DNA from: a virus
Direction: 5' to 3' (one strand)
Virus record (IMG/VR): IMGVR_UViG_3300046323_000234
DNA length: 64,000 bases
Shown: piece after piece, positions 55,147 through 64,000 of the stretch
Layout of the letters: every line of letters starts with the position of its first letter
Numbering within the stretch: position 1 is the stretch's first letter
Notes under the pieces: generated by a model
What the model saw: only the letters and a program-made list of their open reading frames with translations
What the model was told of the DNA's origin: nothing
Database searches by the model: none
Program-made: the position numbers and the translations under genes

Positions 55147-56445
55147 GTGAACTTACCCACCCACACTTCGTGATAGTTGGGCTTCCACGTATCACGCACA
55201 GGCTATTGCCTCACGTTGAGATACGCTAGGCTTGTTCCTAAGCCCGAAGTTTTTAATATTTATAGCTGCATTAATATCTCTATCATGCTTGGTATTGCAT
55301 TTAATGCAAATCCATTCTCTATCATTAAGTGTTAATTCTTTATTGATATATCCACAACAATTACAAGTTTTACTTGATGGCTCAAATCTACCAATTACTG
55401 ATAGATTTTTTCCTTGCCATTCAGCCTTATATTCCAGCATTGTTCTGAACTCACCCCAACCCATATCACTTATCGCTCTTGCAAGGCAATGGTTTTTAAC
55501 CATGTTCTTTACAGATAAGTCCTCAAGACAAATTGTATCATAATTATCGATAAGGTATTTGCTTATCTTGTGTAGATAATCTTGTCTTTGATTACGAACT
55601 GTTTCATGAAGCAAGGCAACAATCAATTTTTGTTTTTTGTATTGGTTACTTCCTTTCTTCTTTCTTGCAAGACTTCTTTGTTCAACTCTTAATTTTTGCA
55701 TTGTAGATTTAAAGAAATCTTTGTTCTCGAATTTCTTTCCATCTGATGTTATTGCAAAATCTTTTATTCCCAAATCAACACCAACAGCAGAAGTTTCTGT
55801 TATTGGCAATTTCTTTGGTAATTCTTGTTTGTTGTCAACTAATATGCTAACAAAATATTTATTTGTAACTGTTCGTGAAACAGTAACAGTTTTTATATCT
55901 CCTTTAAATTCTCTATGTAAATCAATTCCAACATATTTAAGTTTAGGAATAAATATTTGCTTATTATCTTCACTTAAAAATACACCTTGTGGTAGTTGAA
56001 ATGATTGTTTTCCATGTTTATTCTTAAACTTTGGAAACCCCTTTCCCTTAAAAAAATTTGTATATGCATTATCAAGATTACGTAAAACCATTTGTAAAGC
56101 TTGTGATGGTGCTTCCTTGAGCCAAGGGCATTCAGTATCTTTTAACTCCTTCACTTGCTTAATAAGGTCAAAGCAATCAATATTGGTTTTATTCCCAACA
56201 TAAGCAGTTATCTTGGTTTCTAATCCAAGATTATATACAAAACGAGTTTGTCCAAATATATTAGCAAGAAGACCTTGTTGATCTTCTGATGGGAATATTC
56301 GATATTTATATGCTTTTAACAATTTATAGATAACCTTATTTATCTATAAATAGTATAATATTTTAAAAAAGATTTAAATAATTAAAAATAATTTGTCGCT
56401 TACATCCCATCCACGTAAAAACGATGAATGGGTTTTACGCTCCGT
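55147..56445 (-). mobile_element. Non-autonomous IS200/IS605 element (tnpB only)
   Basis: tnpB flanked by left-end hairpin CCCATTCA..TGGATGGG and right end ..GTGGGTGGGTAAGTTCAC; no tnpA; left boundary approximate. Confidence 0.8.
55192..56322 (-). CDS. tnpB: TnpB RNA-guided nuclease
   Basis: MLKAYKYRIFP HTH, GVDLGIK (RuvC-I), ICLEDL (RuvC-II), CNCC..CIKC Zn finger, HDRDINAA (RuvC-III). Confidence 0.95.
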   Translation of the reverse strand: MLKAYKYRIFPSEDQQGLLANIFGQTRFVYNLGLETKITAYVGNKTNIDCFDLIKQVKELKDTECPWLKEAPSQALQMVLRNLDNAYTNFFKGKGFPKFKNKHGKQSFQLPQGVFLSEDNKQIFIPKLKYVGIDLHREFKGDIKTVTVSRTVTNKYFVSILVDNKQELPKKLPITETSAVGVDLGIKDFAITSDGKKFENKDFFKSTMQKLRVEQRSLARKKKGSNQYKKQKLIVALLHETVRNQRQDYLHKISKYLIDNYDTICLEDLSVKNMVKNHCLARAISDMGWGEFRTMLEYKAEWQGKNLSVIGRFEPSSKTCNCCGYINKELTLNDREWICIKCNTKHDRDINAAINIKNFGLRNKPSVSQREAIACA

Positions 56446-59618: not shown

Positions 59619-60419
59619 TTAGATTGGTAATGCAATTTTTGAAAGCATTTTTTTACTGACATGGGTATAAATTTCGGTAGTTTTTACACTTGAGTGACCA
59701 GCTAACGATTGGATAAACCTTAAATCTGTTCCCACTTCTAATAGATGTGTAAAGCAGCTATGTCGTAATTTGTGGATGCTCGATGTTTTATCAATATATT
59801 TTTTGAATATGTTTTGGCAAGATTTAACCGAATACTGTGGAAAATTTTGTCCATTAAATAAATACTCAACAGATCTATATTCTTTAAAATATATCCTTAA
59901 TAATTCCAAAACAGTTTGGGATAGTGGTACAATCCTATCTTTTCTACCTTTAGCTTGTCTAATATTGATGATCATTTGTTTTGAATCAATGTCTTCAATT
60001 TTTAGATTAACTATCTCAGAAACTCTTAATCCAACTGAATAACATAATGTTAATATAGCTTTATGTTTAATGTTTTCAATTTTGGATAATTGAGATAAGA
60101 TATGATCATTGTCAATAACTCTTGGTAATTTTTTCTCTTTTCTCGGCCTTTGAAAATCAACCTTGTCGTATTTCTTTTCCAAAACCTTTTCATAAAGAAA
60201 CTTGATTGAGTTTATTATCTGGTTCTGTTGACTAATTGATGTGAACTTATAATCATTCAGATAAGATTGAAAGTCATTGGAAGATATGTGAATAATTTGC
60301 TTATCGCCAAATGATGAAACAAATGGCTTAATATGTGATATATAATTATTTATCGTATTTATTGAGTAATTAAAATATATAAGCTTTTGTTCACAAATCT
60401 TTATAATTTTATCGTTCAT
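59619..60419 (-). CDS. Tyrosine recombinase (integron-type integrase, lacking the IntI insertion)
   Basis: SAM-like N-terminus (YSINTINNY), GLRVSE, KGRKDR, HKLRH, LAGHSS, EIYTHV; likely start MNDKII at 60419. Confidence 0.9.
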   Translation of the reverse strand: MNDKIIKICEQKLIYFNYSINTINNYISHIKPFVSSFGDKQIIHISSNDFQSYLNDYKFTSISQQNQIINSIKFLYEKVLEKKYDKVDFQRPRKEKKLPRVIDNDHILSQLSKIENIKHKAILTLCYSVGLRVSEIVNLKIEDIDSKQMIINIRQAKGRKDRIVPLSQTVLELLRIYFKEYRSVEYLFNGQNFPQYSVKSCQNIFKKYIDKTSSIHKLRHSCFTHLLEVGTDLRFIQSLAGHSSVKTTEIYTHVSKKMLSKIALPI

Positions 60420-60439
60420 TTGATTGTAAGTTATTGATT

Positions 60440-60481
60440 TATTGATATTTATATTTACTTGCGTATATATAGCAGTTAGCG
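60440..60481 (+). other. attI-like primary recombination site (core GTTAGCG at 60475)
   Basis: First GTT core, about 55 bp upstream of the integrase start, with no hairpin arm before it; complementary to TACCGCTAAC at the end of cassette 1. Confidence 0.65.
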
Positions 60482-60487
60482 GTAATA

Positions 60488-60775
60488 CTACCAACTGTTC
60501 ACAAATCGAATTTTATGCACACCTTCTGGTATTTCGGAAACGATGATTTCAAATCCTTCTGTCATATCTTCACTGTATTCATGCTTTGGTATTTTAATCT
60601 CAAGTTTTTCCTCTAAAAGATATTGTTCTGGATATTTACTACCAAAATATTCAGCGGTTTCTTTTGGAAGTTCTGAAATACCTGCTTCAATACAAGCATT
60701 TAAAACTTTGGCGTGTTTCTTATAATTTTCGTTTTCAGGTGAAACAAAACCTGTAATTCTCGTTGACATTCCCAT
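60488..60775 (-). CDS. Cassette 1 ORF, hypothetical
   Basis: 95 aa between attI and attC1. Confidence 0.7.
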   Translation of the reverse strand: MGMSTRITGFVSPENENYKKHAKVLNACIEAGISELPKETAEYFGSKYPEQYLLEEKLEIKIPKHEYSEDMTEGFEIIVSEIPEGVHKIRFVNSW

Positions 60776-60822
60776 TTTATTATAGTTTTAAATTAAAAAT
60801 TCGTTTTTCAAATCCGTACTAC

Positions 60823-60947
60823 CGCTAACAGCACATAGGCAAAAAAGCCGTTTCAGTTTCACAAGAATATTTTTCATAAGTATTAAATTTATCGTTTCAA
60901 ATTAAGTTATCGTTTCGGCTTCTTCGCCTATCTGCAAAACGTTATGT
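60823..60947 (+). repeat. attC-like site 1
   Basis: CGCTAAC-a-GCACATAGGCAAAAAAGCCG...CGGCTTCTTCGCCTATCTGC-aaaac-GTTATGT. Confidence 0.85.
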
Positions 60948-60957
60948 GTAATAAAAA

Positions 60958-61200
60958 TTATTCACATGGTTCGTTCTTTCTACCACTACCTGTTTCAACC
61001 AAGTACGCCTTTTCGATTAATTTCAAATAAGATACTGGTTTTCCTCTGTCGGTATCACAAATAACCTTTTGTCTTTGTTCACAATAATACCCTTCCGAAG
61101 TTAATCGAAATTCCTCACCGTTTGGTAATCTAACTAAATCACCATTTCTCCACGCTGATAAAACAGGGTTGTATTCTTTTATTTTTGGTAATCCATCCAT
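60958..61200 (-). CDS. Cassette 2 ORF, hypothetical (MDGLPKIKEY...)
   Basis: ATG at 61200 just inside attC2; frame stays open to 61281. Confidence 0.6.
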   Translation of the reverse strand: MDGLPKIKEYNPVLSAWRNGDLVRLPNGEEFRLTSEGYYCEQRQKVICDTDRGKPVSYLKLIEKAYLVETGSGRKNEPCE

Positions 61201-61213
61201 AATTTTTACATAC

Positions 61214-61343
61214 ACATAACAAAGAATATAAGTAATAACCGAGTTATGTGGTTTATTTAAGTTACTACCCTTTACAATCATTTATACGTAATTTTAAGTT
61301 TGTGTTTCAAGTCGGTTACTACTTATATTCTTAACCGTTAGTG
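61214..61343 (+). repeat. attC-like site 2
   Basis: ACATAAC-a-AAGAATATAAGTAATAACCGA...TCGGTTACTACTTATATTCTT-aacc-GTTAGTG. Confidence 0.85.
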
Positions 61344-61586
61344 GAAATTTGCCTTTTCAACTTCTCCGCATTTAACACACTTTCGTGGGTAAGGTTGGTT
61401 CATGCTTCTGCTATACATGTGGGAGCAAGGCAAACTATCCACTAACACAGGGTTAGAAGAAATTTTTAATGCTTCCTTTATCATCATAATACAGTCCACA
61501 TATGCACCTTTCCTTGCTCTACTTTCTTTTGTGCTATCTCCACAGTTTGCTGCTTTCAATTTTAGTTCTGCTAATAGTTTCTCCAT
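61338..61586 (-). CDS. Cassette 3 ORF, Cys/His zinc-binding tail; starts inside attC3 loop
   Basis: CSH...CVKC; stop TAA is the complement of the GTTA core. Confidence 0.6.
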   Translation of the reverse strand: MEKLLAELKLKAANCGDSTKESRARKGAYVDCIMMIKEALKISSNPVLVDSLPCSHMYSRSMNQPYPRKCVKCGEVEKANFH

Positions 61587-61649
61587 TTTAATTATATTTA
61601 GTTGTTAGTAATCGCATTAAAAACTTCTCTAACCCTGATACCGTTATGC
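61440..61649 (+). repeat. attC-like site 3 (long loop containing coding sequence)
   Basis: CACTAAC-a-CAGGGTTAGAAGAAATTTTTAATGC...GCATTAAAAACTTCTCTAACCCTG-atacc-GTTATGC. Confidence 0.8.
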
Positions 61650-61724
61650 TCCATGCCTTAGTTCAGTCCTTCAATTTGAGTTTCGTGATGAAAAACAAAA
61701 AGAATTTACCAAACGCACTGTAAA

Positions 61725-62180
61725 TTATTTTATTTCTTGTTTAAAATACAATGGTTTTTTTGAAACTACAATGGTTGCACCAATCTCATTTGGGTCATCT
61801 AATAATATTTCATTACCATCACCAAACACTTTATATAAATAATCGCCATATTTATACTTATCATATTGGTATGATAATGCTTTTATTGGTTCGTTTGATA
61901 CAAAAGTAAACCCATACCCATTTTTATTAAAAACATTATTCATTTCTTCAAAATCATCGTTTTCTAAATTTTCATCATAATCTGATATTATATCCATATA
62001 AGCACTTCTAATTAAATCAGAATAATCCGATACATTAAGTACTGATGCTTTATATAATCCATCCTTCATATCTCGTTTAGATGAATGATAACCCAAAAAT
62101 GTTTTGTTTTCGGTATTTTCATTAACAAATTGTTTAAAGTTTTTCACTTTATCAATCATTTTACGTATATCTTCACTCAT
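61725..62180 (-). CDS. Cassette 4 ORF, leader + possible ART-like domain
   Basis: MSEDIRKMIDKVKNFKQFVNE leader; GYHSS..FTFVS..YGDYLYKV; ATATTTATA 15 nt upstream. Confidence 0.65.
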   Translation of the reverse strand: MSEDIRKMIDKVKNFKQFVNENTENKTFLGYHSSKRDMKDGLYKASVLNVSDYSDLIRSAYMDIISDYDENLENDDFEEMNNVFNKNGYGFTFVSNEPIKALSYQYDKYKYGDYLYKVFGDGNEILLDDPNEIGATIVVSKKPLYFKQEIK

Positions 62181-62291
62181 AGTTTTATCTTTATATATAA
62201 ATATTCCAATTTTAAAAATCCACCCTAAAATTCTTTTTGTTTTTCTTTCGTGTTTCAAATCAGCATTATCAGTTAATAAGTCGGCACGAGA

Positions 62292-62385
62292 GCATAACAA
62301 GGTGTATAAGAAAGTTTGCTATCCACAGTAGTTGTAATTTGAAAGTTTCTACAAGCAAACCTTCTCATACACCCAACCGTTAGGC
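62292..62385 (+). repeat. attC-like site 4
   Basis: GCATAAC-a-AGGTGTATAAGAAAGTTTGCT...AGCAAACCTTCTCATACACCC-aacc-GTTAGGC. Confidence 0.85.
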
Positions 62386-62389
62386 ACAA

Positions 62390-62632
62390 TTAAGAAACTC
62401 GCCAAACCTCACTATTAGCGAAAGCAATTTGGTATTCTTCTTCAACCTTCTTTTTAAATTCATTCGTTAAATCATTTACCATTTCGCCATTCATTGGTGT
62501 TACTGCGTGAAATTCTACCTTTATACCTTTATGTATTCCAGCACTATAAGCCATTTCCATTTGTTGTTTTAAGTATCCTTCTGAATACCAAATTTCTTCT
62601 TTACCGTTTCGTTCTCTAATTAAACTATCCAT
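62390..62632 (-). CDS. Cassette 5 ORF, hypothetical (MDSLIRERNG...)
   Basis: ATG at 62632; frame open through the attC5 arm to 62677. Confidence 0.6.
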   Translation of the reverse strand: MDSLIRERNGKEEIWYSEGYLKQQMEMAYSAGIHKGIKVEFHAVTPMNGEMVNDLTNEFKKKVEEEYQIAFANSEVWRVS

Positions 62633-62647
62633 GATCAAATTAACTGT

Positions 62648-62741
62648 GCCTAACAAGCAATATAAAACAGTTGCCATCAGGCTTATTACTAAATTTGAAA
62701 CGTCTTATAAGGCAACCGTTTCATATTGCCGACCGTTATAA
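62648..62741 (+). repeat. attC-like site 5
   Basis: GCCTAAC-a-AGCAATATAAAACAGTTGCC...GGCAACCGTTTCATATTGCC-gacc-GTTATAA. Confidence 0.85.
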
Positions 62742-62797
62742 CCAATACTATATTATACGTTCCATATAGCATTTTGGTTCAAAAACTTTTAAAAATT

Positions 62798-63244
62798 TTA
62801 CCCACGCTTTTTTCTTAAAATTCTTTGAAAAAATGGTAATTCTATAAAATCATCTACACCATTTACTGTTTCAACATCATAATGTTTACCTTTATAATAT
62901 AACCAAACGTGGTCTAATTTCATCAATTTTTGAGATTCTGAACCAAATTTTGTAAATTTTTTATAATATCTCTTATTATTCTCATCAGAAAAATCAATCG
63001 CACAATCTTCACTATAATCTGGATTTGTAGCCAATAAAAACACGTCATCACCTTCCCCACCAACATCTTGCAATAAATCATAAGCAAATTCATCACAATA
63101 ACCCCTATTAATTTGATTTATTGTACATCCAATGTTTTCACGATAATCATCAATTAAATTATTTATTTTGAATGAAATATTTTCATTTAAAAACTCATTT
63201 AATGTAGTTTTAATTATCTTTCGTATTTTGCTGTTATCGTCCAT
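62798..63244 (-). CDS. Cassette 6 ORF, leader + Cys/His/Asp (papain/transglutaminase-like) domain
   Basis: MDDNSKIRKIIKTTLNEFLNE leader; INRGYCDEFA...HVWL...HYD; ATATTTATA 15 nt upstream. Confidence 0.65.
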   Translation of the reverse strand: MDDNSKIRKIIKTTLNEFLNENISFKINNLIDDYRENIGCTINQINRGYCDEFAYDLLQDVGGEGDDVFLLATNPDYSEDCAIDFSDENNKRYYKKFTKFGSESQKLMKLDHVWLYYKGKHYDVETVNGVDDFIELPFFQRILRKKRG

Positions 63245-63352
63245 AGTTTTTACTTTATATATAAATATTCAATTTTAAAATTCCCACCGCACATTTTTAA
63301 AAGTTTTTGTTCTGTGTTTCAAACAAGCATTTGTGGTAATTATCCGTACTGG

Positions 63353-63406
63353 TTATAACAGCAAATATATTGCATTAAAACGACAATATATTTGCAACCG
63401 TTATAA
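63353..63406 (+). repeat. attC-like site 6 (minimal, 54 bp)
   Basis: TTATAAC-a-GCAAATATATTG-11nt-CAATATATTTGC-aacc-GTTATAA. Confidence 0.85.
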
Positions 63407-63601
63407 GGCATTGTAAAATACACCTTCACCGACTTCTAAAATCATTTTCATTTTTCTAAGCAATCTGTAAATTGTCGGAATGGCTCTATTATACAATCTT
63501 CCTTCTGTGTCATATCCCCAACATTCGGGGTAATATTTTTTAGCTATACTCCCGACTGTAAAATCACCCTTTGGTAAATCTTCAATTTTGAAACGTGCCA
63601 T
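63401..63601 (-). CDS. Cassette 7 ORF, possible winged-helix protein
   Basis: 66 aa; stop codon overlaps the GTTA core. Confidence 0.6.
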   Translation of the reverse strand: MARFKIEDLPKGDFTVGSIAKKYYPECWGYDTEGRLYNRAIPTIYRLLRKMKMILEVGEGVFYNAL

Positions 63602-63613
63602 AAAAACAACGCC

Positions 63614-63707
63614 CTATAACATTATATTTATGCAAGTGGGCGTAATCATTTGCATAAATCATGGGTTCATTGCATTGCCCACCTGCATAAATATTTGTTC
63701 GTTATAT
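63614..63707 (+). repeat. attC-like site 7
   Basis: CTATAAC-att-ATATTTATGCAAGTGGGC...GCCCACCTGCATAAATAT-ttgttc-GTTATAT. Confidence 0.8.
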
Positions 63708-63763
63708 TCAATTTGTTTTTTTTTGCCACCGCAGAGAAAAAATTTAAAATTTGTTTTTAAAAA

Positions 63764-63973
63764 TTAAGAGGTTTTTACGTCCTGTATTCTTTCATATTCA
63801 ACTTCATCAATCCAATGTTTACAAAGCGGACAAATCGTATCACAGTAATTTTCATCAGCATCGTCAATATCGCTTTCAAAGTCATTTGACTTAAATACAC
63901 CTTTGCATTCTGGACATTCAATATCTGTATTTTCGTATTTAAATAAAAACTCTGGAAGTGGAGCGTGTTCCAT
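63764..63973 (-). CDS. Cassette 8 ORF, zinc-finger protein (5' end may extend beyond window)
   Basis: CPEC...CPLC. Confidence 0.55.
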   Translation of the reverse strand: MEHAPLPEFLFKYENTDIECPECKGVFKSNDFESDIDDADENYCDTICPLCKHWIDEVEYERIQDVKTS

Positions 63974-64000
63974 AAATTGATGGTCAAAATTAACTTCTAC

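Follow-up and report, generated by a model that had tools for sequence, protein, structure and literature searches.

A phage-borne gene-cassette array, probably integron-like in its working, headed by a short Xer/IntI-like recombinase without the I2 insertion

A stretch of 64,000 nucleotides from IMG/VR virus record IMGVR_UViG_3300046323_000234, referred to below as the window, carries in its last part (positions 59,619 to 64,000) a tyrosine recombinase gene, an attI-like site, and an array of small gene cassettes separated by attC-like hairpins. We conclude that this region is probably a phage-borne gene-cassette platform, integron-like in its working and run by a short Xer/IntI-like recombinase that lacks the I2 insertion of integron integrases. 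The integron-like reading had been proposed in a first-pass annotation made from the letters of the window, and it is supported here by the attI-like site, by cassettes bounded at their cores, by hairpins conserved in structure, and by cassette variation among related phages. The system is not a classical integron: its enzyme has no I2, its sites are asymmetric in the other arm and in another manner, and the orientation of its genes is inverted.

The cassette array and its attI-like site

The recombinase gene lies on the minus strand and is transcribed away from a lone core, GTTAGCGGTA, at 60475-60484, whose GTTA is 55 nt from the integrase ATG. Seven TAAC...GTTA imperfect palindromes follow, and one small open reading frame (ORF), always on the minus strand, occupies each interval between them. 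The first-pass annotation had described the lone core, the direction of the recombinase gene, the seven palindromes and the single small ORFs between them in just this way; only the lengths that it gave for the palindromes, 54-210 bp, have to be replaced, by measured values of 48-204 nt. The features are as follows.

59619-60419, minus strand: tyrosine recombinase, 266 amino acids, Xer/IntI-like, without the IntI-specific I2 insertions
60420-60478, no strand assigned: attI-like site, a TATATA-rich conserved sequence with the lone GTTA core (60475-60478) at its end
60476-60941, minus strand: cassette 1 (TTA...G); ORF 60488-60775, 95 amino acids; hairpin 60826-60944, 119 nt; complementary ends GTTAGCGGTA and TACCGCTAAC
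60942-61337, minus strand: cassette 2; ORF 60958-61200, 80 amino acids; hairpin 61217-61340, 124 nt; complementary ends GTTATGTGTA and TACACATAAC
61338-61643, minus strand: cassette 3; ORF 61338-61586, 82 amino acids; hairpin 61443-61646, 204 nt; complementary ends GTTAGTGGA and TCCACTAAC
61644-62379, minus strand: cassette 4; ORF 61725-62180, 151 amino acids; hairpin 62295-62382, 88 nt; complementary ends GTTATGCTC and GAGCATAAC
62380-62735, minus strand: cassette 5; ORF 62390-62677 or 62390-62632; hairpin 62651-62738, 88 nt; complementary ends GTTAGGCAC and GTGCCTAAC
62736-63400, minus strand: cassette 6; ORF 62798-63244, 148 amino acids; hairpin 63356-63403, 48 nt; complementary ends GTTATAACC and GGTTATAAC
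63401-63701, minus strand: cassette 7; ORF 63401-63601, 66 amino acids; hairpin 63617-63704, 88 nt; ends GTTATAAGGC and GCCCTATAAC, complementary with one mismatch
63702-64000, minus strand: cassette 8, incomplete; start GTTATATTCA; the ORF, from 63764 onwards, leaves the window

All seven pairs of complementary cassette ends listed in the first-pass annotation are real, although the pair of cassette 7 includes a mismatch, and its count of at least eight cassettes holds, with seven complete and the eighth truncated by the window end. The array continues past that end; no exact match to the window end was found in viral contigs, and the distal end of the array lies out of view. The cores fit the integron consensus RYYYAAC / GTTRRRY. 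When the whole 64 kb of the window was scanned with a detector specific for this architecture, exactly the seven array sites were returned, and none elsewhere.

The ORF of cassette 3 starts within the loop of its own hairpin. In genes 3 and 7 the stop codon (TAA) is formed by the core TTA, at 61338-61340 and 63401-63403 respectively, and therefore travels with the cassette.

Conservation of the layout in related loci

For comparison we drew 80 related loci, designated by L numbers, from collections of viral sequences, metagenomes, and genomes. In the 293 kb on the array side of the integrase gene there are 175 sites, of which 173 have the orientation seen in the window, while the 431 kb on the other side hold 7. 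With a strict detector, at least one hairpin was found in 35 of the 49 loci that have at least 1 kb of sequence on the array side.

Complementarity beyond the core was measured over 43 arrays with 180 sites. The two ends of one cassette, that is the bases after GTTA and those before the next TAAC, are complementary over a mean of 4.35 nt, with 65 of 130 cassettes reaching 6, as compared with means of 0.78 nt for the two flanks of one hairpin and 0.88 nt for random flank pairs. The start of a cassette is thus complementary to its own TAAC end and not to the neighbouring GTT, as had been claimed for the window. Because complementarity of cassette ends exceeds its controls, and because all seven detected sites of the window fall in the array, a chance origin of the hairpins is excluded. 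In all arrays the inverted repeat of the cassette ends is systematically broken at base 7 (ACT-N5-TAAC against GTTA-N5-AAT), and the complementarity never exceeds six bases; this break may mark the edge of the recombinase footprint.

The attI-like site is conserved as well. Among 43 loci, a lone GTTA lies 48-75 nt upstream of the integrase ATG in nearly every one, and it is preceded by a conserved TATATA-rich motif, in most of them at a fixed distance from the ATG. Between this site and the hairpins only the 4-nt core is held in common. The bases that follow this GTTA and the outer flank of the first hairpin complement each other, which is the pairing predicted by a layout of attI + (gene + attC)n. 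Several arrays end distally in a hairpin whose outer flank has no partner, and this also fits such a layout.

Mobility of the cassettes

The inverted pattern of the cassette ends reads alike on both strands and cannot identify the "top" strand, and we therefore turned to comparisons of the contexts in which hairpins occur. Near-identical hairpins in different contexts form 366 pairs. In 45 of these the integrase-proximal flank alone is homologous, in one the distal flank alone, and in three both. When pairs with a hairpin identity of 90% or more are taken, and the 6 nt beside the hairpin are compared, 24 agree exactly on the proximal side alone and three on the distal side alone. Furthermore, one unit of about 150 nt, 100% identical in its copies, is the seventh in the array of L054 and both the third and the fifth in that of L017; every copy runs from the GTTA of the hairpin before it to that of its own hairpin. 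By comparison, the flank counts (45:1 and 24:3) and the identical units show that the mobile unit runs from GTTA to GTTA, as TTA ... gene ... TAAC-hairpin-G, with the crossover at the GTTA core, attI included. A hairpin thus travels with the gene on its integrase-proximal side, and the polarity of the mobile unit relative to intI and attI is the classical one. We also considered a model with the minus strand as the "top" strand, in which an ORF is followed by its attC and the integrase sits at the far end of the array; it was rejected because of the position of attI, the 45:1 and 24:3 linkage, and the units bounded by GTTA at both ends.

Arrays of related phages differ in the order and content of their cassettes, with junctions at the core, as the first-pass annotation had anticipated. 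Loci L015 and L017 have the integrase and attI in common (96% identity) and then carry entirely different arrays; the modules that the two do hold in common all end at GTTA (+0 to +2) and extend proximally only. A copy of cassette 5 of the window, 91-93% identical, is the second cassette of L081, where homology begins exactly at GTTAGGCAC. A homologue of cassette 6 occurs in a different array, L106, and there the specific homology begins at GTTA|TAACCAATACTA. An extension of this homology to include hairpin 5, which would have favored the opposite linkage, was rejected, as the hairpin is merely 72% identical and thus similar at the level of a family. Loci L106-L113 are near-identical to one another, and no population-level cassette variation was seen among them. 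Hairpins of the window recur beside other sequence too: that of cassette 2 is 93% identical to a hairpin of L037 with differing flanks, and that of cassette 4 is near-identical in L006, L037, and L054, again with other flanks.

The array is found in freshwater metagenomes of several studies, and contigs matched to the window branch at hairpin cores. One contig of run X2 joins the end of hairpin 6 to the start of a diverged cassette 4 through a common ACCGTTA, and a co-occurring relative therefore has the cassette order 6 then 4. Contig joints with short sides (60801 to 63256, 61957 to 62860, and 62225 to 62294) were left out of consideration, and so were bins without coverage.

Distant relatives occur in culture. 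The integrase of the Polaribacter Freya phages is 36% identical to that of the window, and Freya and Danklef both count among the distant relatives. The Freya genomes are otherwise 99.7-100% identical, and their block indels all begin at GGGGTG|TT beside the integrase gene; the block at this position is empty in Freya_1 and amounts to an additional 2.2 kb in Freya_6 and 4.6 kb in Freya_9. Freya_8 has one extra unit of 305 bp at the attI position, with GTT at both bounds.

Hairpin structure and strand bias

Across all arrays hairpin length is discrete: about 48, 88, or 125 nt, or in a few cases 186-219 nt, in steps of about 38-40 nt. A structure alignment was made from 56 distinct sites of about 88 nt. 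The consensus of the minus strand folds at -26.2 kcal/mol into a continuous helix of 22 pairs, 15 of them with compensatory changes, while that of the plus strand folds at -8.4 kcal/mol into 13 pairs in fragments. The minus-strand fold includes a fixed 4-nt bulge adjoining the core and G.T wobbles at two positions (54 of 56 and 53 of 56 sites). On this strand 98.3% of cells are paired, a percentage inflated by a detector that itself selects for stems, as against 77% in column shuffles (none of 500 shuffles came up to 98.3%) and at most 54% in a control with slid partners; the covariation score is 0.561 versus 0.161. The sites are thus conserved in structure and variable in sequence.

The stems of the 162 unique hairpins contain 271 mismatches. 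Of these, 213 read A.C on the plus strand and are therefore G.T on the minus strand, and in 146 of the 162 hairpins it is the minus strand that folds more stably (p = 3e-24). The strand selected to fold is the integrase-sense (minus) strand. It coincides with the strand that the polarity of attI would predict as the recombining bottom strand. An Rfam search of the hairpins gave no family match and one sub-threshold chance match.

As a positive control, the same procedure was applied to the Vibrio IntIA integron on phage Va_90-11-286_p16 (described in PMC9892861), whose attC sites were extracted by means of direct repeats. There the extra bases lie on the TAAC-side arm (33 versus 10), typically as three single bases, and genes precede their attC sites. 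In the phage system all 162 sites show the reverse, with the GTTA-side arm carrying the extra bases (563 versus 15) as one contiguous bulge.

The recombinase

The recombinase ORF spans 59619-60494 on the minus strand. Its true start is likely the ATG at 60419, which gives a protein of 266 amino acids, because homologues are 266-267 amino acids long. Pfam domains Phage_integrase and SAM_4 are recognized. The first-pass annotation had called the enzyme catalytically complete, and in alignment with IntIA, XerC, and XerD the six residues R132, K157, H216, R219, H242, and Y251 are indeed invariant.

No curated model for a relevant subfamily claims the protein. It scores 169.3 bits to the IntI model TIGR02249 (cutoff 265), in two separate stretches, and fails the curated Xer cutoffs with 181 bits to XerA_Arch (cutoff 220), 155 to XerD (cutoff 330), and 149 to XerC (cutoff 335); no search was made for a dif-like 28-bp site. 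The match to VchIntIA (PDB 2a3v) splits, with 35 residues of the recombinase opposite 83 of VchIntIA, while the match to XerA (4a8e) is unbroken. Alignment with Vibrio IntIA shows both IntIA insertions to be missing, one with the WLPNALREKYP segment and the other with the FPS...RRHH segment. The pattern of N-terminal insertions and deletions is that of IntIA, and not that of XerC or XerD. Because the I2 insertions are absent and the score falls below the curated cutoff, the protein is not a member of IntI as defined; judged by its alignments, it resembles an IntI-type enzyme without I2.

Homologues number more than 7000 at E < 1e-20. Hundreds of them are 70-76% identical, some on contigs of 100-360 kb with phage genes, and among cultured phages no homologue exceeds 60% identity. 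Recombinases 41-66% identical occur in Lacinutrix (L005), in Tenacibaculum soleae (L007), and in metagenome-assembled genomes of Bacteroidales (L004, L006); these four Bacteroidota loci each have at least one co-oriented hairpin upstream of the recombinase gene. At 10001-10464 of L002, from a viral contig of 123 kb, the integrase homologue is apparently broken, with fragments alone giving matches, and two identical 48-nt hairpins are left beside it. This locus may represent a decaying platform.

Cassette genes and their expression

All cargo proteins are unannotatable ORFans, and so give no footing to the description of the genes in the first-pass annotation as phage-type rather than host-type. 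For the eight cassettes of the window, searches of Pfam, PHROGs, and PADLOC gave no usable match, and the protein of cassette 1 fits no family. That of cassette 6 has just 12 metagenomic homologues. In an atlas search the protein of cassette 4 matched unnamed viral clusters, and a score of 0.89 to a cluster of Arr-type ADP-ribosyltransferases is to be taken as a lead only. A weak Pfam match to ART-PolyVal (ADP-ribosyltransferase), likewise a lead only, occurs in the array of L106-L113, from one lake study (e.g. L106 4862-5242), in a cassette two genes from the cassette 6 homologue. The N-terminal 25-53 residues of the cassette 4 protein recur in otherwise different cassettes of L054, L036, L013, and L006.

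In 86 segments the longest ORF shares the strand of the integrase gene, against 4 in which it does not, and therefore the hairpin stands at the 5' end of the gene and the genes point to the integrase. Because they do so, they would probably be expressed from promoters carried by the cassettes, and not from one Pc promoter common to all. A conserved upstream leader, ACTTTATATATAAATATT..., is common to cassettes 4 and 6 (62181-62294 and 63245-63355) and to the L106 homologue of cassette 6, and a TTGAAACAC-like motif is found upstream of cassettes 4 and 6 and also in the loop of the 124-nt hairpin 2. Leader and motif may constitute a cassette-borne promoter or leader module.

Phage context of the window

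The guanine-plus-cytosine (GC) content of the window is uniform, at 26-30%, and the window encodes a phage-type helicase, DNA polymerase, baseplate wedge protein, and exonuclease. An independent metagenome contig spans 57973-62302 without a difference, and thereby bridges the backbone, the integrase gene, and four cassettes. Together with the uniform composition, this contig identifies the region as phage DNA, and not as host DNA misassembled onto a phage contig, the eventuality against which the first-pass annotation had cautioned. Modules of integrase and array stand beside phage genes in many IMG/VR phage contigs. The proposal that a large phage carries its own platform for the capture and shuffling of genes is supported by this evidence together with the comparative mobility described above.

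Elsewhere in the backbone, a TnpB gene occupies 55192-56322 on the minus strand, with OrfB_IS605 and Cas12f-like TNB domains. A contig of run X2 skips 55281-56392 (1110 bp, depth 14.9). This region looks like an insertion polymorphism of the IS605 family.

A proposed mechanism and its alternatives

In plus-strand order, the layout begins with the integrase gene, itself encoded on the minus strand, continues with an attI-like site whose last letters are G|TTA, and then repeats the cassettes. Each cassette consists of TTA, 5-6 specific bases, a minus-strand gene with its upstream region, bases complementary to the specific ones, TAAC, the hairpin, and G. In the mechanism that we propose, a cassette would be excised as a circle, in which pairing of its two ends would add about 10 bp to the hairpin. 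Of the two strands, the integrase-sense (minus) one would fold, as only this strand makes a good hairpin because of the G.T wobbles and the fixed 4-nt bulge. The recombinase would then cleave the folded strand at TAA|C and exchange it with attI or with another hairpin, and replication would resolve the product of recombination, as it does in integrons.

A wider set of propositions is advanced tentatively, and jointly, as somewhat more doubtful than not. I2 may be unneeded for gene capture through folded hairpins by a phage enzyme of Xer/IntI-like type, the choice of strand being encoded in the DNA by fixed G.T wobbles and the 4-nt bulge beside the cleaved core; the lineage may be ancestral to integrons, or an independent viral sister to them; and phages of Bacteroidota may use it to swap accessory, possibly counter-defence, genes.

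Several considerations, apart from the selection for stems by the detector, weigh against an integron-like working of the array. In 317 of the 366 near-identical hairpin pairs (for example in the 48-nt class) the hairpins adjoin unrelated cassettes on both sides; such pairs call for an explanation of their own, just as the homogeneity of attC sites in chromosomal integrons does. Few cassettes are directly seen in two arrays, and the cleanest case of insertion at attI, that of the Freya phages, is from a phage only distantly related, whose sites are simpler. Among assembled contigs, which cannot show circles, this phage yielded no circle, no junction read, and no recombination event. The strand that folds is also the mRNA sense strand, and an asymmetry of the G.U type would equally fit a role in RNA. 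Finally, the enzyme is without the I2 helix that is held responsible for recognition of single-stranded attC (PMC7790495).

The last point leads to an alternative in which cassettes and enzyme are the same, but the substrate is duplex or cruciform DNA that undergoes two strand exchanges in the manner of Xer/dif, with no folded single strand and no replicative resolution. The enzyme is Xer-sized and, without I2, aligns unbroken to XerA, and Xer enzymes that lack I2 recombine sites that are double-stranded or mimic a duplex (PMC7790495). However, the TAAC and GTTA of a hairpin lie 40-200 bp apart, so that there is no single duplex core site. The structure of the hairpins is conserved while their sequence varies, and a strand-biased folding, with G.T on one strand where the other has A.C, would not be selected for by a duplex substrate. 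We consider this alternative unlikely.

Another possibility, improbable in our judgment, is that the hairpins are regulatory stem-loops between small early genes, comparable to the PeSL elements of T4-type phages, that shuffling proceeds by homologous recombination, and that the recombinase serves lysogeny or dimer resolution. Shuffling mediated by PeSL, and mini-circles, have been documented (PMC2839356, PMC4122927), hairpin families 80-100% identical are shared between unrelated cassettes, the folding strand is the sense strand, and the TTGAAACAC-like motif and the conserved 5' leader accompany hairpins. Yet the hairpins have no T-run and are not terminator-like, the single terminator-like match that was found lying away from them, and matches to sigma-70 promoters are at chance level. 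The attI-like site and the hairpins have only the 4-nt core in common, and still it is exactly there that first cassettes differ; inverted ends specific to each cassette would be useless to homologous exchange; and the position and orientation of the sites are tied to the integrase in dozens of loci.

That the array is a classical bacterial integron, or a CALIN (cluster of attC sites lacking an integrase), captured from a host chromosome, or is misassembled host DNA, is very improbable: IntI integrons and CALINs in phages have been published (PMC9892861) and the cores do fit the integron consensus, but the enzyme is without the IntI insertions and below the TIGR02249 cutoff, GC content is uniform and the bridging contig shows no difference, the module recurs beside phage genes in many IMG/VR phage contigs, and the real Vibrio integron has the reverse hairpin asymmetry and the reverse gene orientation.

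If the integron-like working that we favor is correct, a large system for shuffling genes would be escaping the standard detection of integrons, for which an IntI-specific domain is a requirement. A very abundant family of more than 7000 related recombinases without I2, of which many come from large phages, heads arrays that bear the comparative hallmarks of integrons, and the phylum whose phages carry the system is one with hardly any known integrons (PMC9024848). Should the enzyme prove active on the hairpins, ideas on where integrons came from, the long-speculated viral origin among them, become directly testable, and a smaller recombinase could become available for cassette engineering.

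Comparison with known systems

A literature search, with most subscription journals outside its coverage, found no paper that describes a phage cassette system with an enzyme lacking I2. The nearest published cases are classical integrons captured by phages and attC clusters in phages without an integrase. Qi et al. 2023 described temperate phages that had captured classical IntI integrons, three in all, and short clusters of attC sites in phages, 17 in number and said to be without integrase (PMC9892861). Like the sites reported here, some of theirs are attC-like with GTTRRRY cores in virulent phages, including a Polaribacter phage, and in both cases the cargo may help to counter host defence; unlike the present work, theirs draws no link to a recombinase without I2, to attI, or to long native arrays (PMC9892861).

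The PeSL cassettes of T4-type phages (PMC2839356, PMC4122927) resemble the phage cassettes in that small ORFans, bounded by stem-loops, occupy hyperplastic regions of phage genomes and are gained, lost, and reordered as modules, with mini-circles proposed. They combine a sigma-70 promoter with a terminator, are driven by homology, and have no dedicated recombinase, whereas the phage arrays possess a dedicated recombinase, an attI-like site, and specific inverted ends.

With Xer systems the array has in common an enzyme without I2. Those systems employ the host pair XerC/XerD, which acts at a dif-like duplex of 28 bp, real or mimicked, whereas here a single enzyme, encoded by the phage, is paired with long variable hairpins, attI, and cassette arrays. 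The pdif modules on Acinetobacter plasmids are a type of element that exploits Xer recombination. In the CTX phage, a folded single strand serves as substrate for a Xer enzyme without I2 (PMC7790495).

Recombination in integrons is explained by the I2 helix, which reads extrahelical bases of the folded attC (PMC7790495, PMC11641012), and IntegronFinder 2.0 found almost no integrons in Bacteroidetes (PMC9024848). The phage system nevertheless resembles classical integrons, as known from Vibrio and VchIntIA, in many respects. Its recombinase gene reads away from an attI-like site that ends in G|TT. Its cassettes hold single genes, each ends in an imperfect palindrome with AAC/GTT cores, and the first bases of each are complementary to its own inverse core. 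The sites are conserved in structure but not in sequence, it is the integrase-sense strand that folds better, and the cargo consists of highly diverse ORFans. It differs in that its enzyme has 266 amino acids and no I2, as against 320 for the IntIA of the Vibrio control; in that its sites have their unpaired bases in a single bulge, about 4 nt long, of the GTTA-side arm, as against three single bases on the TAAC-side arm, and conserve G.T wobbles; and in that its carrier is a phage. In classical integrons a promoterless ORF is followed by its attC and points away from intI, whereas the phage genes are inverted, with the hairpin at the 5' end and the gene pointing to the integrase, an arrangement without the expression logic of a Pc-type promoter.

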